IMG/VR virus record: IMGVR_UViG_2740892449_000004
Strand: one strand, 5' to 3'
DNA length: 64,000 nucleotides
DNA from: a virus
Lineage: Duplodnaviria > Heunggongvirae > Uroviricota > Caudoviricetes
Part shown: positions 2,773 to 31,256 of the stretch, one piece after another
Position numbering within the stretch: position 1 is the stretch's first letter
How the letters are laid out: each line of letters opens with the position of its first letter
Notes under the pieces: generated by a model
The model's database searches: none
The model's input: the letters and a program-made list of their open reading frames with translations, nothing else
Told to the model about the DNA's origin: nothing
Position numbers and translations under genes: made by a program

Positions 2773-4662
2773 ATGGAACAGTTCAATATCAATAAAGGGG
2801 TGACGATCAAGCCTGGGCTTGACGTGCTTCCCCCGCCAGTGACTGATGATGAATATCGCGCATTAATGGCCGGTGAGGACCGCTATCTGATGACGGAATC
2901 CAACACCCTGGAGGAAATCGAGGCTACGTTCTTCTATGACACGCCGATCCACTGGTGTGCTACGGATTTACTGGAGGCGATTAGTTCTACTCGTTTGCAG
3001 TTACACCGGACCATGCAGGCATTTGTCCGGGCATTGAACCAGAAGCTGAATGGTACCGGAATCTCTGCGGGGAGTGATAAAACGGGGGATGTGGCCCAGA
3101 GCGGCGCGCGCGCGATCGGCGGCGCTGAAATTGGCCGGGCACGTAACGTTAACGGGCTGCCGGTCTTGCCAGCCATTATTCCGCTCAGTGATGGTCAGAC
3201 TATCAGCATTCTGTTTCATAGCCCGACAGCGGAAAACCGGATCACCAATAGCGATACGCTGGTTGCTTTCCAGTTCTTACTGAATAAAAAAGACGTTACT
3301 CACACCGTTGCTCCGATGAGTGGACGTGATATGACGCTGGCGCAGGTCACCATGAAACTTGCCAACCTTGCAGAGAAAAACTCGGCAAAATTCCAGCGTG
3401 CGCAGAAGAAGAAAAAAGCCCTTGTTGATGAAATAACCCAACTACAGGCTGACAGTGACCAGAAAGAGGATGCCATGAGCGACCTCGCGGATCAGGTGGC
3501 AGCGGTAGAAGGGCAGAAGGCAGATCTGGAGCAGAAAATTAACGCTGTTGCATCGGAAGCGGATTCTCTTTATGAAGAGAATGAGCGTTTGCAGACGGAG
3601 ATTGATCAGCTCAATCGCACTGGTGGGCGCGGTACCATTGCTCCAGCGGGGATGACTGGTGGGCACTCTCGCGCGCTGACGGATCGCCTTGCCAGTATCA
3701 AAAATCGTATGCATATGGACGGGGAAGTGACGCTCAGTAATGGTGCATCAATGAAGCAATTCATTGGGGGCGGCGAAGGGTATATCCAGTTAACCGATCC
3801 GGATGGCAGCGTATACATGATCAAGGCTAAATCCATACAGGGTGTGGACATGGCAGATGCGATCGGCAAGCTGTTTAAAGCCTATAAAGCGGGTAATGTA
3901 TCGGAATACCTGGTCCAACCAGAAGAACATAAACCGGAAAACGTCGAACCTGAACCAGCGGAGGATACCGGTAGCTCTTCGCCTGAACCAGAAGTCTCTG
4001 TAGGTGCATATCGATATGCCCTGCAAATGCGTCCGGCGGCCCCTGGCGCAATACCTGAAGGTAACAAAGCAATTCTGCCGCGCCCTGATGAAGGTGACCC
4101 GTATTATGAATATGCACGCTACGGCATTGCTACTTACGATACCCCGCTTTCTGATCAGCAAATGAGTGAGTACGACCTGAAGTTATTGCCTCGCGAGGAT
4201 TCTTTCGACTTCCTGGCGAAGACACTTACTAATGGTCCGTTTGGCAAATATGCACAAAAAGCTCTGGAGCTGGCCACCAGCTCACCAGACGAGTTCCGCG
4301 TAATGCTGAAAACTCAGTTTCAAAAAACTTTCCCCAATATTGCGTTTCCTGGGGGCGCTGGCACCGAGAAAATGGTGCAGAGCATGATCAATGCATTGCA
4401 GGCCGAAGTCGGTGAGATTACTCAGCCAGAACCGGCCCCGGCACAGCCTGATGAAACGGTTAGCGAAGCAGATGCAGAGGCTAATAAAGCCATTGAATAT
4501 CTCAATAACGTGATGGATATACAAAGCACTGACATGGCGGAGATCCGTAACGCCCGGGGCAATGTCCGGGAAGCGATTGCAGCCTTCAGGCTGCCGGACG
4601 TTTTGAGGAAAACGAAGAGCTGGTTAACGGCGCAGCTCGCCACCTGGCTGATCTGTTGGTAG
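2773..4662 (+). CDS. darA: DarA-like internal head / antirestriction protein precursor
   Basis: 629-aa ORF, start overlaps upstream stop (TAACATGG); central coiled coil; identity inferred from synteny (lydA-lydB-...-darA, darB elsewhere in window), not from a motif. Confidence 0.55.
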   Translation: MEQFNINKGVTIKPGLDVLPPPVTDDEYRALMAGEDRYLMTESNTLEEIEATFFYDTPIHWCATDLLEAISSTRLQLHRTMQAFVRALNQKLNGTGISAGSDKTGDVAQSGARAIGGAEIGRARNVNGLPVLPAIIPLSDGQTISILFHSPTAENRITNSDTLVAFQFLLNKKDVTHTVAPMSGRDMTLAQVTMKLANLAEKNSAKFQRAQKKKKALVDEITQLQADSDQKEDAMSDLADQVAAVEGQKADLEQKINAVASEADSLYEENERLQTEIDQLNRTGGRGTIAPAGMTGGHSRALTDRLASIKNRMHMDGEVTLSNGASMKQFIGGGEGYIQLTDPDGSVYMIKAKSIQGVDMADAIGKLFKAYKAGNVSEYLVQPEEHKPENVEPEPAEDTGSSSPEPEVSVGAYRYALQMRPAAPGAIPEGNKAILPRPDEGDPYYEYARYGIATYDTPLSDQQMSEYDLKLLPREDSFDFLAKTLTNGPFGKYAQKALELATSSPDEFRVMLKTQFQKTFPNIAFPGGAGTEKMVQSMINALQAEVGEITQPEPAPAQPDETVSEADAEANKAIEYLNNVMDIQSTDMAEIRNARGNVREAIAAFRLPDVLRKTKSWLTAQLATWLICW

Positions 4663-5065: not shown

Positions 5066-8052
5066 ATGAGCTTAAGCGATCAGGTGGTAATGGCCACCAG
5101 CATAGAAACGCTGATCGAGCTGCTAAAGAACCTGCCCGATTATGGGCGGGTTTCGTATGTGGTGACAGCGAAGGGAGACGAGGTAAAAACAGCGTTTGAT
5201 ATCGTCGATGCCTCAGCTCTTTTGGTATCCAATACTCTGGATGGGAAAATTAATCCTGACTATCCCCAGGAACTTCAGCCGCGCGACCGGACCCGCGCAT
5301 CCAGCCTTCTTCAGGTTAACCAGATATCCAAAGATTTGCGGCCAGCTCAGCTTACTGATTCCGGTTTATCCAGCCATGGTGCGCCGATAATTGGTGAGGA
5401 CAATGCCGTTGAGTCAGGTAATGGACGGACCATGGGGATCATCAAAGCCTATCAGGACGGCAATGCGGATCGGTATCGTGAGTACCTGATTGAACATGCG
5501 ACCGAATTCGGAATACGACCTGAAAAGGTTGAATCAATGACGCTCCGGTACTGGTGCGCCGCCGGTTAACGAAGGTTGACCGTGTTCAGTTTGCCAAGGA
5601 CTCAAATATTTCTGATCTCCAGGAAATGGCAGCCAGTGAAAAGGCTTTTGTTGATGCCGACAGCATAACTCCGGCGATGATGGCGCTGTTTAACCCATCA
5701 GAAAGCGGAGATCTGCTTAGCCGCAGTAATGACGCGTTTATTCGCGGATTCATGACGCAAGTTGGTGCCACACAGGCTGCTGGCCTTGTAACGGAAGATG
5801 GGCGACCAACACGGCAACTTGTTGACCGTATACAAAACGCGATCTTTGCCAAGGCATATAAGGATGCGCGCCTGGTAAGAATGGTTGCAGAAGAACCTGA
5901 TCCGGATATGCGTAATGTTCTGACGGCGCTTAATGCGGCAGCCAATGATTTTGTCCAGATGCAGGCTTTATCAGGAGAAGCGCACAAGCAGGCTGTGACA
6001 ACTATTGTTGATGGTATTGAGACAGCGGATAGTCTCGATAAAAAGGCGCTGGCGGCATTGAAAGATGCGGTAGACCTGGTAAGGCAATCGAAGGAGTCAG
6101 GCCAACATATTACCGATGTTATTGCTCAGGGGGATATGTTCAGCGAAACAGCCCCGGAAGTGAAAGCTCTCGCGTTGTTCATCGTCGCGAATAACCGTAG
6201 CGCGAAGCGTATGGCCACCGCCTTTAAATTGATGGCTCAACGTATCAATGATGAGTTACAGCACCAGGGCCAGGCGCTGGGGGATATGTTTGGCGGTGGT
6301 GATGTGTCGTTACAGGATATCCTTCGCCAGGTGTCTCAGGAACTGGAAAACGAAGGCATGCAAGGGATATCCGGCGGTCTTTTCGAGTCCGTTTCCGGCG
6401 GTAGTTACAACGGTGTTGCTCCATATACCAGTTTGCTATTACATCGGGCATCCGGCATCAAAGACATTATTCATCTGATCAGGCTGCTTTCCCGTACAGA
6501 TCCCCAGGATGAACAGCTTGTACAAGTGCTTGCGCATTTTGTTCGAATGCCTGTTGCCGACGTGAATAAATGGTGCCGATTATTCGGTATCAGCAATTCG
6601 TTACTTCGCGGATTGTTAAATCACGCATCCTCCCTTGGGCGCGACGGCTTTGATGAGATAGCGCAGGCGATAAAAAACGGAGATATGCCACCAGCTATTG
6701 ACTGGTTTTCCATTCGCCCAACCAGGGTGAAAGCATTCCTTAGCGCGGCGCATTCGGCATCACCATTGGCAGAAATGGTTCAGAGGTTGTCGCTCATATT
6801 CACAGACCATACCGCGTTGGGTGATCTGACTCTGGACGAGATGAAAGAAGCCTCCATTCAGTGGGCCGATCAACAAAATGAGGTTAACTCAGACTTCTTG
6901 CCAGCATTCAGGAAGGCCGTTAGTAAAGCGGATGATGCCCGTGGAATTCTGAAGGCGTTTAAGGCATTGCAAAGTCGTGTTAATAAACATGTCGGTGATA
7001 TCGATGGGGTAACGGCGGAAGGCCGGGATATCCTTAAAGAGCACGGCATAACGCCAGAGTTTATTGATGAGATCAGGACTGATATGCAGCGTGAGGTCGT
7101 ATCGTCCCTGCAAATCGTAGCCAGAGCGTTGGCGGATGCTAATCCGAAGAGTGCGGCCATTGTTAACCGGGTTATTGGTGATATTGAAGCATCGGAGGGC
7201 ATGGGGGCGCTGAAACTCTTCCTTTCGCGAGCGTTTAATCCTAACGGCAATATTCTCCCTGGCATTATTGGTGAGGCTAAAAAGTATGTCAGTGAAGAAG
7301 AACTTGAGCAGCTTGACCAACTACTTAAGCGATTCTCATATAACCCGCAGACACGCTGGCAAATGAATCAGCGAAGTATGGGTTCGGTCCACGAGAAAGT
7401 GTTATCTGCCATGAACAGTGCGATCGCAAACTCATCCGTATCTGAAGAAAAAGCTCTTGAGTGGGCCGACTCTTTTATCACAGAAGAAGTGGAAGAAGCC
7501 CGCGCTGGACAGAATGGTGGGATAGACCTGCGCAAGGAACTTGCTGATATTTATCGCCTGACCGGCGGGAAAATATCGACCTTATCAAAGGTAGTTCACC
7601 ACCAGGGAAGGGCATATGCAAATCTTAATGGTGTTGTTGCTGTCAATTTGAACGATGAAAATGCAAGTGCACTGTGGCACGAGCTGGGTCATCATCTTGA
7701 GTACAGTAACCCTGGTTTGTTAGAGAAAGCCCGGTCATTCCTGAAGGCCAATGTTGAAGGGGATAAGCCATCTTTCGTCAATATCGGTGGGCGTGGCAAG
7801 CCTGAATGGTGCTTCAGATCTCGATTGAGTAATATTTATATGGCGAAGGTATACCCGCCAGCCTCAGTAAGTAACACCGGGAAAATTCGGCAGAAATCAC
7901 CGACTATTTCCAAAACGTCAGCAACGGAAGTATTCTCTATGGCTCTTCAGTTGTATCATGACAAAGAGGCCGCTGCCGCATCACTGATGAATGGTGACGG
8001 ATTGCTGGAACTGTTATTAGGTGTGGCAAAGGAGCTAAATAATGCAGATTAA
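5066..8052 (+). CDS. Large darA-operon protein (DdrB-like by position), reading frame broken once
   Basis: ORF track gives 5066..5569 and 5554..8052 in different frames overlapping 16 nt; combined span 2987 nt = 3n+2, so one added base restores a single ~995-codon ORF. Confidence 0.6.
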
Positions 8053-8350
8053 AATCGCAGCGCCATTAGGTGGAGATGCCATTATCGAATTTGATGATAA
8101 TGAAGAAGTTTCCGGGCGTTTAAGCATTATCTCCGGTGACATTACCGAGGACATGATCGCTGAAGCCATAGCTGGGGCAAATCCCAATAGCTATATGGGA
8201 TTCGTTAACACCCTTGATGCTCCCGCAAGTGATGTTCTCCGAACGCTGCATCTTTACGCTGGCTGGTTTGTTGATTGGCCAGCAGTAGATGGTGGCGATG
8301 AGGACGACGACGATGATTTTGGTGATCATGTAGACCAGATCGTATATTGA
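8042..8350 (+). CDS. Small acidic hypothetical protein, last gene of darA operon
   Basis: ORF track 102 aa; GGAG RBS before ATG that overlaps upstream stop; Asp/Glu-rich C-terminus. Confidence 0.5.
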   Translation: MQIKIAAPLGGDAIIEFDDNEEVSGRLSIISGDITEDMIAEAIAGANPNSYMGFVNTLDAPASDVLRTLHLYAGWFVDWPAVDGGDEDDDDDFGDHVDQIVY

Positions 8351-8352
8351 AG

Positions 8353-8378
8353 AAATCCCGCCAGTCGGCGGGATTTTT
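8353..8378 (+). terminator. Intrinsic terminator between convergent darA operon and minus-strand genes
   Basis: Perfect hairpin AAATCCCGCC-AGTC-GGCGGGATTT followed by T-run, 3 nt after the 8350 stop; A-run on the other side makes it bidirectional. Confidence 0.6.
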
Positions 8379-8381
8379 ACC

Positions 8382-9474
8382 TCACGAGAAGCTTTTTTCT
8401 GATGTCAGCCAACAGTGCTCGTGCAAATCTCTTGGTGGTTTTTCGACAAATGCCTCTTCAGCCACATCCTGCCAGGGGATTTGTTTAGCCCATTCAGTTA
8501 TAGCGTTATGGTTTGCCGAGAATAACGGTATTGTATAGGCCTTCAGCCAGTCTAATGTGCTGGAGTTGTGTTTTTGAGCGTGATGTTTCGCATGGTGTTT
8601 GGCGATCACGATCGTAGGCACTACCCATTTACTACCGTCAGTCATTGTGAAGTGCATATTACGGGGAACAGATGACTTTTCCATCAACTCCCGAATCCCG
8701 GGAAATTTCCCCAAGATCAATCGGCGATATTCATCGCTATTGCGCCCACCAAACTCTTTGGCTTTGAATTCAAGATATGCTTCAGAAACGAGAGGTGAAT
8801 CCTCTGTGTTTAGAGTTATCGCCGTGAAAAAACCAGCAGGATTGTTTTTACTATGGGCCAACCGGTGATGCGAATCATAAAAGTACCCTTTCTCGCGTTC
8901 CGATGGTTTCGACAGCAACAGCAGGCGCGAGTCATAATTGGTTAAATTGCCAGTTATCACTGCATGAGCGCGATCGCTGATTTCCGCCGAGTTAATAACG
9001 ATGAAAAGATCGTGCGGTCCAGTAAAACCAGCCAGAGACTCTTCGTTATTCAGACAATAGGTTATATAGACGCATCCCCATGTTTCACTGATATGCACCA
9101 ACTTTGTCAGGGTGTATTCTGAAATAATTGCCAAGAAAAGGGTGTTTTTGGGTAACTCGCTCCCAATAACGGAACATATAGTCAATTATTGTTTTTCGAC
9201 TATCGTTAATCGCAGGAGAAACAACCACTGTACGGGAACACGAATACAGTATTGTTTGCAGGATGCTAATCACTGCCACAATAGAGGTTTCCCCAATACC
9301 ATGTGGTGTGGTGGCAGTGACTTTGGCTCCGGTGTTCTTTATCGCGTTAATAATTTTTGCCTGATGAGGTGTTAACTCAATATCAAGCAACTCTTTTGCT
9401 GCCAGTTCCCAATTGTCTTTATACCGTTCTATCAGTGCTAACCAGGCAGATTCATTCTGTATACGATTAATCAC
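8382..9474 (-). CDS. Terminase large subunit (PacB)-like paralog, ATPase motifs degenerate, frame broken
   Basis: Track ORFs 9085..9474 and 8382..9185 align in series with PacB of this window (28579..30063), e.g. [11 protein letters not shown] conserved; Walker A reads HGIGETS (Lys lost) and Walker B reads IVINSAE; C-terminus unrelated to PacB. Confidence 0.5.
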
Positions 9475-10457: not shown

Positions 10458-10946
10458 CTAAAACGGAATATCGTCTTCAAAGTCCATTGGAGGTTCGTTA
10501 TTGGCGCTGCTCTGAGGTTTGCCACCACCGCTGTATTGCTGGTGGTTTTGAGGTTGGTTTGACTGCCCCCAGCCATTTGAGGACTGTGAATCGTCGCGGC
10601 GAGCGCCGATCATTTGCATGGTGCCGCCCTGGCTGACGATAATTTCCGTCGTGTAACGTTCTACACCGGCGTCATCTGTCCACTTACGGGTTTTAAGTTT
10701 CCCTTCGATGTAGACCTGAGAACCTTTTCGTAAATACTCACTCGCAATTTCAGCAATTTTTCCGAACAAAACGACTTTATGCCATTCTGTTTGCTCTTTC
10801 TGTTGGCCTGTTTGCTTGTCGCGCCATGATTCATTCGTTGCGATGCTGAGTCTTCCGACTGCTCCGCCATTTGGTATATACCTGATATCTGGGTCTTGTC
10901 CCAGGGTACCTATCAGGATGACTTTATTTACACCGCGTTGTGCCAC
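10458..10946 (-). CDS. ssb: Single-stranded DNA-binding protein
   Basis: OB-fold N-terminus close to E. coli SSB, Gly/Gln-rich linker, acidic tail DFEDDIPF; GTG start. Confidence 0.95.
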
Positions 10947-10965: not shown

Positions 10966-10982
10966 AAATTAATTAGAGCAAT
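10966..10982. promoter_or_regulatory. C1 repressor operator-like 17-mer
   Basis: AAATTAATTAGAGCAAT, 16/17 match to reverse complement of ATTGCTCTAATAAATTT; between ssb and lyz. Confidence 0.55.
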
Positions 10983-22284: not shown

Positions 22285-23424
22285 TTACACAGTATCAATG
22301 TGTCTGCTAAGGAATCTCCCGAACTGATTTGTTGACCCAAAATAGTTAGGATAAGCCTTTTTAAGAGATTTAATGTTGTTAGTGGCAAGCAGCACCGCAA
22401 TTAATACTTCAGGATCCGCATCATCCTTATTAAGTTCCTGGAGGGCTTGTTCCGATTCTTTTTTCCTAAAAGGTTTCACAGAAACAAGAAACTTTCCAGT
22501 ATCCTTGCCATTTTTTGTTATGGCGTTTCTCATCCTCACCAAAAAGAATCCATTATGGTTTTTGGGCAGGCTTTTCTTTAGGTTTGCATCTGATGTCAGC
22601 TTCATTGCAAATGTATATGTACTTAATTTTGAGCGAACAGATAAAGCCTCCTCCAATGTTTTAAGCTCTGTTTGATAATTTTTGATGGTTTCATCATCAA
22701 GAATACAGGCACCTTCATCATGAGCAACTAGGCATCCAGAAAGATAAAAAAATCTTCTCCACTCAGGGTGACCTTCATTAGAAGTTTTCAGCTTAATATT
22801 TTCAAGTGTATCTATTATCTCCAGACTTGTTGCCCAAGCATGTTGGAGTTCTGTTCTTAGTTGTACTTCGATTTTAGTTTTACTCCACGGATTGTTACCG
22901 TTTTCTTCATCAAAACAACTATATGCAAGGTGAATGCCACTATATCCGCTTGGCTTTGGAGTTAAATAGTCATATTCCTTTAAGATTTTATGCTTGGAGC
23001 GACTTTTAACTAGTCGGTCTTTTAGTTTCTTTAGTTGTTCGATGTTTCTAACTATAGCTCTACATCCGCCAATATCCTGCATTCTAGTAAGGGCTATTGC
23101 ATTATTTGTTGCGCCGCCGTCAAGACTTGGACGCTCCAGTTTATCAATTATTGTGCTAAGTCTTTTTAGGCGTCTTGCAACAATAATCTTATTCTCTTTA
23201 TCAACTTTTTTTGCAGCCCTATCAAGATGATTTTTCATTAGCATCAATGGATATAAATGAAGCTCGCGGAAATTTTGAATCATTTTAATTGCTTCTTCTC
23301 GCTCTGCGCCCTCACAACCATGTCTAATTTTTCTGGCTGCTTTTTCTATTTGAGATTTCGAATATTTAAGTTCGCATTTTTGGCTTTGATATACTTCACT
23401 GCCCATTACTAACATCCAGTTCAA
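22285..23424 (-). CDS. RelA/SpoT-domain nucleotidyltransferase (toxSAS) fused to a C-terminal domain; CapRel-like candidate
   Basis: Motifs RLKRLSTIIDKL, DIGGCRAIV, SGYSGIHLAY, EVQLRTELQHAWATSLE; visibly AT-rich; TTG at 23424 or ATG at 23415/23406 as start. Confidence 0.8.
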   Translation of the reverse strand: MNWMLVMGSEVYQSQKCELKYSKSQIEKAARKIRHGCEGAEREEAIKMIQNFRELHLYPLMLMKNHLDRAAKKVDKENKIIVARRLKRLSTIIDKLERPSLDGGATNNAIALTRMQDIGGCRAIVRNIEQLKKLKDRLVKSRSKHKILKEYDYLTPKPSGYSGIHLAYSCFDEENGNNPWSKTKIEVQLRTELQHAWATSLEIIDTLENIKLKTSNEGHPEWRRFFYLSGCLVAHDEGACILDDETIKNYQTELKTLEEALSVRSKLSTYTFAMKLTSDANLKKSLPKNHNGFFLVRMRNAITKNGKDTGKFLVSVKPFRKKESEQALQELNKDDADPEVLIAVLLATNNIKSLKKAYPNYFGSTNQFGRFLSRHIDTV

Positions 23425-28578: not shown

Positions 28579-30063
28579 TTATTCATTAAGCCATGCCAGA
28601 GCTTCATCAACCTGCGCTTCGTCTTCGACGCTAAGCACTTCATCCTGGGGAACATAGTTCGCCAACATAGCGAAACAATATGTATCCCAATGGTCCGGTG
28701 AGTGCAGGTTGAGTTTTTTCTTCATATCTTCCTTTGACATCACCTTCCATTGACCTGCGGAATTTATCCCTACCGGTATCTTTGATGCTTCCTCTATAGT
28801 CGCAGCCCCCTTATCAAGCCTCATACGCCCTGATTTTACAGCTTCTGCCGCCTGAATATTCGCGAAAGCGCGCATATCGAAATAAAGGCTTTTATCTTCA
28901 CGGCTGTGCATCTTTTTACCCCAGCGGATACGCTGGACGGTAATGCCATAGCGTTCGTACATTAGATCAGCCGTCGATTTCCCCAAGCCATCGCCATCAA
29001 TAGCTATGGTTATGTTCGGGAACCGTTCTGGGTTACATTCTGCGAAAATCTTGGCGGCTAACTGCGTTTCTGTAACGTCTGTGTATTCCAGCATACGATA
29101 GTTGATTACACGGCGTTTATTTCGCTGGCCGGACACCATCATGATATTAATAACGGACTTATCTCGTCCTGTGCCACCAGCAACGTCAACACATGCAACC
29201 CAGCCCCATCCTTTGGCAATCTTGACCTTTCGCCGCGTCGCCCGCTCAACCTCATCACGACCAAGAAGAAAGCCATCTTGAGATTTGGGAAATTCACCAC
29301 GTACTTTGATCATGTACATGGGGTTATCACGACCGCCATACTCCGCAAGTTTTGCTCGTATAAATTTTGCATCTACAAGCGGAGATTCTTCACTATTCAG
29401 TATTATCGCAGTAAACAATCCATCAGGATTTCCCGGGCGAATAGCTAGTCTGTGGTGTGAATCGTAGAAATAGCCTGAAGGTCGCGTAGGCTGGGAAAGA
29501 AGCAGAATACGGTTATCCTTACCGGTCAGCGCACCTGTTATCACACTGAATGCTTTATCACTCACACCCGACGCTTCGTCGATGATATACAAGAGATGAT
29601 CGGCGTGTTCACCAGCCAACGCCTCCTCATTCCCGGGGCGACAGGACTTTATCAATATTGTCCAAACACCCTTGCCAGTCACCTCAAAAAAAGACGTTTC
29701 TGTAAGAATGAAATACTTCGACAACCACGGGAATCTGCTAACAGCAGTAGCCCAATTGCTCTTTATGTATTTGAAAATACCATCAAGGACTTGCTGTCTT
29801 TTGTTAGCGACCAGAATGACGCGAGCGCCGGGGAAAAACATGATGAAGAGTATTGCAATGATACTCGTCATATCCGATTTACCAGTACCATGGCCGGAGG
29901 TCACACTTGTCCAACTGCCGTCCTGCTGCGTGGACTCAATGATCTCATCCTGCTGCCAGGTTGGTGTCTTCCCAAACAACACATCAGCGGCCGCAATCCA
30001 GTCATAACGATATAGCGCCACCAGCTCGCGCCAACGTGGGTCCGTTACGCAACTTCTGGCCAT
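28579..30063 (-). CDS. pacB: Terminase large subunit PacB
   Basis: 494 aa; Walker A SGHGTGKS, Walker [10 protein letters not shown]; downstream of pacA. Confidence 0.92.
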
Positions 30064-31256
30064 TAATCATCATCCCCGTACAGTTTGCGGGTAACTTCTT
30101 CGTCTTCCTCCTCGTCTTCGTCCAGATCCTGTTCAAGCCATGCTTCGTTTGATATGCCTTCCGCATCGACATCACCATAACCACCTGTATCGACGATATC
30201 GGCAATTTCTTCTCTACGATGCTCAATCCACAATGCGGCATCAGCGCGGCGGCTGGCGGCCCGTTCTCGCGCGATTTTATCCAGATCTTCAAGTGATGGA
30301 GCGCCAGATGCTGTTTGGTTTTCCTCATCATCGGTATTGGTCTTAGGAGCACGCAGATCGGCTTTGATTTGCTCCAGCATCAGGGGCGGCACTTTTCCTC
30401 CATGCGCCTCGATGAATTCAGCCGCTTCCAGCACTGACCAGTTATTTTCACGCTTTCGTTCGTATGCCAGCTTAACAATGCCAGCTTGCCCCATAGATAA
30501 AGCGTGCTTTTCCGCCTCCCGGCTTTCTTTTCGATAGTTATTCCGGATGCTGTAAATGGTGTTGATCAGGCTGCTTATCTGCGCGGAACAGCTGTTTAGC
30601 ATGCTCGCGATACGGTATTCAGGCGGAGTACCTTCATCATCGTCTTTTTGCTGATCGCGCATTTCCTGCACCAGGCGAATACACGTATCCCTGGCGTTCT
30701 CCAGCATAAGGAGATGAGAAAGAGACTTTTCCAGAAGAGTGGTTTCCAGAACATCGGCCCCGGACCGACGCAACATAGCGCGCGCGGCCTTCCGCGCTTC
30801 AACGTTATCTATCAGGTAATCGCCAGCTTCGAATTCAAAGCGTTCACCATCATCATCCAGGGTGTCGCGTTCCAGGCGATCACGTAAGGTCCGGTGGGCG
30901 CGGGTGATCACGTCATGATCATCTGAACGATCATTTATGCGCTTATTTTGGCGCTTAGCGTTCTCGACTGCGGCACTGACAACGGCATTAACTCTTTGTT
31001 TTTCCGCTGTTTCATCCGCAAGGTGATCACCTGCATGTTGATCATTAGAGTGATCAATGATCATGCTTTTTAGAGGCTTCCTGACTGGCTTATTTGGCTT
31101 GCGGCTGTCCGCTGTCCTGGTGTCTTCTTTGAAGGCACGGAGATAACGACGTGCGGTATTAGGGTTAAGATTAAACTCGGCGGCATACTGTGCGATGGTG
31201 TAACCACCATCTCGCGCCAGGCGAGCAAAATTCTTCTTGTGATCGTCCCAGGTCAC
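30063..31256 (-). CDS. pacA: Terminase pac-recognition subunit PacA
   Basis: 397 aa; GTG start with GGAAG RBS; contains the GATC-rich pac site. Confidence 0.92.
30878..31062. other. pac packaging site
   Basis: Two clusters of GATC-containing hexamers (at about 30878, 30906, 30917, 30929 and 31025, 31040, 31052, 31059) inside pacA. Confidence 0.75.

Follow-up and report, generated by a model that had tools for sequence, protein, structure and literature searches.

A catalytically dead paralog of the terminase ATPase domain forms a conserved family in P1-like phage-plasmids

Why does a phage-plasmid with a complete packaging enzyme encode a second protein resembling the large terminase subunit (TerL)? 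Few phage enzymes are as conserved or as well studied as large terminases, which are now known as a main target of bacterial innate immunity. The gene in question lies within the window, the 64,000-nucleotide stretch of viral DNA analyzed here, which is a P1-like phage-plasmid (Punavirus) carrying ssb, isaA, hxr, ddrB, lyz, cre, c1 and pacA-pacB in P1 order. The locus showed 99.7% identity to phage vB_EcoM-813R1 and 96% to the Punavirus record MH422554, in which the same stretch is a single 1095-bp CDS labelled "terminase large subunit." A preliminary description of the window had reported two overlapping minus-strand open reading frames (ORFs) instead, and both were found (positions 9085 to 9474 and 8382 to 9185). 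It had offered two readings of the locus, a decayed duplicate of pacB or a co-opted regulator.

To the question of whether the two ORFs are unrelated genes, the intact ortholog WP_000610388.1 gave a clear answer. A tblastn search with this 364-amino-acid (aa) protein placed aa 1 to 124 at positions 9474 to 9103 and aa 126 to 364 at positions 9101 to 8385, in different frames and with 100% identity throughout, and the ORFs therefore match consecutive segments of one protein. Judged from this alignment, positions 8382 to 9474 (minus strand) represent one gene for one 364-aa protein. A three-way DNA alignment with 813R1 and MH422554 located the lesion that separates the two parts at window position 9102/9103, where AAAGGGTTGG is shortened to AAAGTTGG (Table 1).

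Table 1. Features of the dead-terminase locus, of the catalytic paralog and of the G/C-run deletions (window coordinates)
Feature	Position	Strand	Remarks
5′ part of dead-terminase gene	9103..9474	-	codons 1-124; tblastn 100% identity to WP_000610388.1 aa 1-124
GTG start of dead-terminase gene	9472-9474	-	overlaps isaA stop (GTGATTAA)
2-bp deletion site splitting the frame	9101..9104	.	coding strand GGG -> G
3′ part of dead-terminase gene	8382..9101	-	codons 126-364 and TGA stop (8382-8384)
Degenerate Walker A/P-loop	9286..9309	-	TPHGIGET; PacB SGHGTGKS; both glycines kept, Lys -> Glu
Degenerate Walker B	8982..9008	-	LFIVINSAE; PacB LLYIIDEAS; Asp-Glu -> Ile-Asn
C-terminal small domain	8421..8675	-	about aa 268-352; two strands, three helices, one strand
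Hairpin between dead paralog and convergent hxr	8352..8378	.	AAATCCCGCC-GACT-GGCGGGATTT
isaA	9467..10255	-	upstream gene; stop overlaps dead-paralog start
ssb	10458..10946	-	first gene of operon
C1 repressor operator	10966..10982	-	1 mismatch to consensus; just upstream of ssb
pacB, catalytic paralog	28579..30063	-	intact Walker A GKS, Walker B DE and nuclease domain
pacA	30063-31256		adjoins pacB
G/C-run deletions relative to NZ_LR890206.1	4583, 5542, 9102, 17981, 24679, 25210, 32347, 34383, 38189, 45681, 49769, 50443, 50459, 54288, 55444

That a frameshift splits the gene holds for the letters given; as a property of the gene it does not, since the lesion is one of at least 15 homopolymer deletions and probably an artifact. 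A 100-base probe across the site detected the deletion in 0 of 95 E. coli genome records and 0 of 112 plasmid records; all matches were 98% over 102 bases, and therefore every record has two extra G. For comparison of the whole window we used NZ_LR890206.1, the closest high-quality plasmid (99.5% identical over the first 25 kb). Relative to this reference, at least 15 short deletions were present in G/C runs of the window, the site at 9102 included, and every one falls within a CDS that the reference has intact. Thirteen window genes were confirmed by tblastn to be split across frames, namely a darA-like gene, ddrB, the dead-terminase gene, darB, ref, a DUF968 gene, hot, a metallophosphoesterase gene, ban/dnaB (hit twice) and four hypothetical genes, while no split was found in the control genes pro, prt, pacA and cre in the same comparison. 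Once the two G were restored, the gene was nucleotide-for-nucleotide identical to the Klebsiella plasmid gene for WP_000610388.1. Because so many G/C-run deletions (at least 15, disrupting 13 genes that are otherwise intact) occur in the window, the frameshift most likely results from an error in sequencing or assembly, and systematic under-calling of G/C homopolymers is the simplest reading of the window's deletions. Any frameshift in this window should be distrusted, as data quality affects many genes here. A real deletion that truly inactivated the gene in this isolate appears quite unlikely: it is present in the sequence as given, removes two of three G (more than the typical 1-base homopolymer miscall) and affects an accessory gene that is dispensable in P1; however, no other record shares it, its flanks are otherwise identical to the intact copy, and 14 more G/C-run deletions break the darA-like gene, ddrB, darB, ref, ban and others in the window.

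Programmed frameshifting was considered and rejected. The AAA-G-TTG site has neither a slippery heptamer nor a slow codon, relatives all have GGG, and the usable frame overlap amounts to only two codons because the downstream-frame TGA sits just upstream of the deletion. Other lesions of the gene were observed elsewhere. The copy in 813R1 has a different one, a 1-bp deletion in a C run (near position 4520 of locus L002); the gene match in NZ_CP058773.1, CP148519.1 and NZ_CP127257.1 is 1094 bp instead of 1095 bp; and in pEA13_2 (locus L025, 401-1180) the gene copy is interrupted after 259 aa by ISEc60.

The joined protein aligned with the PacB protein of the window at 34% identity over 284 aa (BLASTP, E = 2e-50), as expected from the serial alignment of the two ORFs noticed earlier. 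The match covers PacB residues 11 to 289 only, which correspond to the ATPase domain alone. No RNase H-like nuclease domain is present: the alignment ends at PacB residue 289, and the last 100 aa belong to another family. The readings HGIGET and IVINSAE for the degenerate Walker motifs were both confirmed. The Walker A lysine occurs in 100% of 77 catalytic relatives and in 0 of 11 members of the dead clade described below; the Walker B glutamate is likewise 100% conserved among catalytic relatives, at a site where the window protein reads IVINSA. Positions conserved in at least 80% of the 77 catalytic relatives and replaced in the dead set include S56, G57, H58, K62, T85, A86, Q91, H152, D161, E162, S164, G165, G176 and T192; they span Walker A, Walker B, motif III and neighboring active-site positions. 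Core glycines, aromatics and prolines were retained in the dead set. P1 PacB also shares further positions whose conservation is seen in the dead clade but not in terminases at large (W22, A25, A26, I69, L72, W104, E145, D182, L222 and G243), and retained contacts with P1-specific partners are therefore suggested. Q38 (window position about 9361 to 9363) and both P-loop glycines were invariant in 11 of 11 dead-clade members. In related ATPases a glutamine upstream of the P-loop forms the adenine-contacting Q motif. Because these three residues are kept, the dead paralog may bind nucleotide without hydrolyzing it.

For the fold, a single-sequence AlphaFold run (pLDDT 36) was replaced by a run with a 93-sequence alignment, which reached a pLDDT of 88.6 and a pTM of 0.82. 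Residues 10 to 260 scored above 92 and displayed the ASCE/P-loop ATPase fold of the TerL N-terminal domain. Sequence, motifs and fold thus all back the earlier proposal of a catalytically dead terminase paralog, and we conclude that the protein is a catalytically dead paralog of the TerL ATPase domain. The place of the TerL nuclease domain is occupied by a small C-terminal domain that scored about 70 to 79. This part had been described as His-rich and unrelated to the PacB nuclease; indeed, the last ~100 aa did not align with PacB and contain AKHHAKHHAQKH. The domain matched positions 407 to 502 of phrog_17928, its last ~100 (E = 1.9e-12). A profile built from four sequences retrieved 1060 proteins, nearly all of them stand-alone and 96 to 123 aa long, and a local HMM of the domain matched window positions 8385 to 9185 (E = 2.7e-45). 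The relatives, mostly stand-alone phage proteins of ~100 aa, carry no Pfam domain or name; they share the pattern DGS-W-VP ... T-PLF ... DWA ... W over about 90 aa, with 20 invariant columns in alignment A4. Since the histidines are not conserved across the family (P0132 has AESHAKYYAKNY), a metal site in this domain is unlikely.

Searches for a known family gave little. Scans of the 364-aa protein against Pfam, NCBIfam and PADLOC yielded no significant family, and PDB sequence searches with the 364-aa protein and the C-terminal domain profile found no relative. Structure searches with the whole model were dominated by the ATPase domain, and the fold of the C-terminal domain was not identified. 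A Rosetta-stone test revealed no separate gene for the C-terminal domain beside stand-alone genes for dead TerL N-terminal domains (dead TerL-N). The full-length match was phrog_5902 (E = 2.9e-182), which also scores PacB highly (E = 3e-139) and therefore does not separate dead from catalytic members; both phrog_5902 and phrog_17928 are PHROG families without assigned function. The C-terminal domain family as such comprises more than 1000 stand-alone proteins (P0132 and P0156-P0273 among the members) and is an uncharacterized phage family. One relative, P0237, is encoded next to xis/int, in the early-left accessory region of a lambdoid prophage (locus L018, 7001-7342).

To what extent is this gene more than the remnant of a duplication? 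A word-indexed protein search returned 3 matches and missed PacB itself, whereas an exhaustive HMMER search of 1.84 billion representatives yielded 623 proteins. Among the best matches aligned, all proteins of at least 430 aa that align to the PacB nuclease region keep GK[S/T] and D-E. The lysine, the Asp-Glu pair and the nuclease are all missing from P0001, P0002, P0004, P0006, P0007, P0009, P0010, P0013, P0014, P0043 and P0060, and separately from P0042. Most dead members are 244 to 266 aa long and comprise nothing but the ATPase domain; the His-rich C-terminal domain is found in P0001, P0002 and P0004, and P0010 (444 aa) is the one long dead member, with a different C terminus, unrelated to the nuclease. 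In a neighbor-joining tree of ATPase-domain columns, calculated without support values, 11 of the 12 dead sequences formed one clade, sister to the PacB-type terminases. These 11 cluster representatives share less than 50% mutual identity, and branches within their clade are as long as those among real terminases; clustering of the fast-evolving dead sequences could possibly be a long-branch artifact. The P0001 type comprises 851 cluster members, the full-length ones being 364 aa long and encoded on contigs of about 90 to 98 kb; the P0004 type comprises 100 members of 366 aa (E. coli, Shigella and Salmonella), and the P0013 type comprises 15 members of 263 aa (Citrobacter). Among 5426 complete E. 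coli genomes, 94 carry the intact 364-aa gene and 575 carry pacB, so that about 16% of the pacB carriers have the dead-paralog lineage. Database labels for the protein are hypothetical, "terminase large subunit" and "DNA packaging protein"; its automatic annotation as a terminase is wrong.

These data bear directly on the suggestion of a decayed duplicate, a pacB copy that no longer functions and is on its way to being lost. In its favor, no catalytic motif and no nuclease domain survives, the window shows a frameshift and 813R1 another 1-bp deletion, a few plasmid records fall 1 bp short, ISEc60 interrupts one copy, and P1 itself lacks the gene. However, the ORF is intact in more than 200 public records and of constant length in hundreds of isolates, full-length homologs at 48 to 53% identity keep both domains, and the same losses characterize a deep clade. 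Moreover, dN/dS among four intact alleles was 0.20 to 0.45 (Nei-Gojobori; small counts), the fold is confidently predicted, and the window frameshift is one of many homopolymer errors. Decay therefore seems highly improbable, and that suggestion is abandoned here as the general state of the gene. The existence of a conserved clade of dead TerL-N proteins in P1-like phage-plasmids is solid.

The gene lies about 20 kb from pacA-pacB, in the order ssb-isaA-gene-hxr; contrary to the earlier statement that it sits next to ssb, isaA intervenes. We detected 15 matches to the C1 operator in the window, compared to 0.2 expected, and the one upstream of ssb agrees with the P1 annotation Ossb/Op21. The hairpin after the stop codon of the dead paralog (-20.7 and -20.8 kcal/mol; z = -5.2 and -4.8) is likely a bidirectional terminator. 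On these signals, ssb, isaA and the dead TerL gene likely form one unit that is repressed in the lysogen. Lehnherr and colleagues reportedly observed in 1999 full repression of P1 ssb in lysogens and weak expression during lytic growth. IsaA of the window is 94% identical to P1 IsaA; we considered it as a degenerate small terminase partner and rejected this idea, as it showed no similarity to PacA and no Pfam family. The P1 reference (locus L003, NC_005856, 5036-6636; window counterpart 8382-9466) does not contain the dead paralog and has IS1 and an unrelated isaB between isaA and hxr. The comparison with P1 isaB that had been proposed revealed no relation of the protein to P1 IsaB (201 aa; best BLASTP E = 0.084 over 57 aa). 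The stretch between isaA and hxr corresponds to variable region RD-2 of P1-like plasmids (PMC6906374, PMC9603915). The classical P1 map thus misses a gene carried by about 16% of pacB-positive E. coli genomes.

Other features of the window were noted in passing. Between darB and ref lies a RelA/SpoT-domain gene (about 22290-23411, minus strand), which is annotated in a near-identical plasmid; one paper reportedly deals with a P1-like phage gene and beta-lactamase fitness costs. The window pacB is 100% identical to that of some E. coli plasmids. In the region of the pacB/pacA junction (29350-30310), however, this pacB showed only about 95% identity, with many small gaps, to the Klebsiella plasmid that matches the rest of the window at 99.5%. 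Elements that are nearly identical elsewhere are therefore mosaic in their packaging genes.

All informative contexts of dead members were P1-like elements, in which the dead gene always lay outside the packaging module and genuine pacAB genes coexisted with it. The window has C1, Cre and PacAB, and a C1-type repressor and a Cre-like integrase are encoded by three divergent loci (L004, L007 and L015); no P1-type C1 operator was found close to the dead gene in these three. L004 (P0004 type) encodes pacA-pacB, c1, a cre-like integrase, a dUTPase and a Tad2-like protein; the gene for an IsaA homolog (46% identical) runs into the start of the dead gene, and doc-phd, humD and hot follow. Within L004 (6006-9101), the isaA-like/dead-TerL pair comes directly after the dUTPase and Tad2-like (anti-Thoeris sponge family) genes and before doc-phd, an arrangement that hints at an accessory or antidefense island. 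In L007 (P0013 type), which has c1, an integrase gene and ref, the end of ref overlaps the dead gene (7336-8792); ref encodes a RecA-dependent nuclease. L015 (P0014 type) carries parM, pacA-pacB, c1 and an integrase gene, and in L005 (7027-8795) a radical SAM gene is located directly upstream of a stand-alone dead TerL-N gene. Since the neighbors vary by lineage (isaA, ref or the radical SAM gene), no fixed partner gene emerges.

This variation weighs against a role in DNA metabolism, in which the dead RecA-like/ASCE fold would work together with SSB, IsaA or Ref in early lytic replication or recombination, serving as a scaffold or binding DNA. The predicted cotranscription with ssb and isaA would fit such a role, as do the overlap with ref in L007, the presence of dUTPase, hot and rdgC genes near the dead gene in other loci and the IsaA homologs that accompany the dead paralog in three lineages. 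However, the neighbors are not constant, IsaA has no recognizable family, and the PacB-specific shared residues point to packaging partners instead. We consider this role unlikely.

The favored reading, at a confidence somewhat short of even, is that the protein modulates or inhibits pac cleavage and packaging. It is a noncatalytic paralog of the PacB ATPase domain, fused to a small phage accessory domain instead of a nuclease domain, and as the last gene product of the C1-repressed ssb-isaA operon it should appear upon induction or infection but be absent from the lysogen. The protein has lost the whole ATP hydrolysis site but retains the fold and the residues specific to the PacB subfamily, and therefore action by binding and not by catalysis appears most likely. 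The preferred partner would be the pacase, i.e., PacA and/or PacB, of the same phage or of a related co-resident one. In other phages (lambda, T4 and P74-26), TerL binds the small subunit through its N-terminal region, and its ATPase domains form a ring in which residues act in trans. A subunit that docks without hydrolyzing ATP or cutting DNA would titrate PacA or poison the PacB ring, and such a nonproductive subunit might modulate or block pac cleavage and packaging. The effect could be restraint of the phage's own pacase early in the cycle or action against a related co-resident element. A point against this model is that the data offer no reason for a phage to inhibit its own packaging enzyme. 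The co-opted regulator suggested at the outset is compatible with the data.

Early production of a pseudo-terminase could also serve conflict, either as a dominant negative against competing P1-type packaging motors or as a decoy for Avs1-3 and Upx; this combined possibility is unlikely, if still worth considering. As a decoy, the early dead ATPase domain would mimic TerL toward the Avs1-3 and Upx sensors before real PacB appears, occupying them unproductively or otherwise blunting abortive infection. TerL is a major target of bacterial immune sensors, and early, C1-controlled expression would be expected here. The gene resides in variable accessory regions, in L004 directly after the dUTPase gene and a gene of the anti-Thoeris (Tad2-like) family, and the variable C-terminal appendages (none, the small domain or another) could block sensor oligomerization. 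Upx requires only the TerL ATPase domain and recognizes it independently of catalysis (PMC13601566). However, on binding a TerL-like fold, such sensors should be activated and not blocked. Avs2 and Avs3 contact the nucleotide bound in TerL (PMC13601566), which the dead paralog probably cannot hold. In addition, a terminase decoy was not found in the antidefense literature searched, no sensor gene lies nearby, and PADLOC-DB profiles gave no match at E = 0.01 or better for the dead paralog, IsaA and four clade members. The decoy taken by itself is thus distinctly improbable.

Taken as a whole, a conserved noncatalytic PacB paralog that would act as a binding modulator of the pacase, with a frameshift most likely due to error, is the best explanation, and we hold it with confidence slightly better than even. 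A conserved, dead, nuclease-less paralog is present in about one in six pacB-positive complete E. coli genomes, where it is misannotated or called hypothetical. Should it prove to bind the pacase or a terminase sensor, it would offer a natural tool for dissecting motor assembly or immune recognition, and it would explain part of variable region RD-2 of the clinically widespread P1-like plasmids. As a motor weapon or decoy, it would represent the first viral terminase pseudoenzyme described to act in conflict. Our literature search found no description of a dead large-terminase paralog, of a terminase decoy or of WP_000610388, and in the literature searched these terminase-derived pseudoenzymes are a previously undescribed family.

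Among known proteins, the closest in sequence is P1 PacB, which is encoded by the same genome, adopts the same fold and has subfamily-specific residues in common with the dead paralog, among them the GYFYDSHH and SEDSPLV motifs. Unlike PacB, the dead paralog lacks the Walker A lysine, the Walker B Asp-Glu pair, the motif III threonine and the RNase H-like nuclease, and whereas PacB belongs to a late operon next to pacA, the dead paralog is located in a putative early, C1-controlled operon away from it. With P-loop NTPase pseudoenzymes in general it has in common a retained fold, lost catalytic residues and continued purifying selection. The closest functional analogues would be satellite proteins that interfere with terminase by binding. 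SaPI Ppi and PICI Rpp are nonenzymatic satellite proteins that bind a terminase subunit and redirect or block packaging, the same mode of action that we propose for the dead paralog. Ppi and Rpp, however, are small proteins with no sequence relation to TerL that satellites encode against their helper, whereas the dead paralog is a TerL-derived pseudoenzyme encoded by the phage-plasmid itself.
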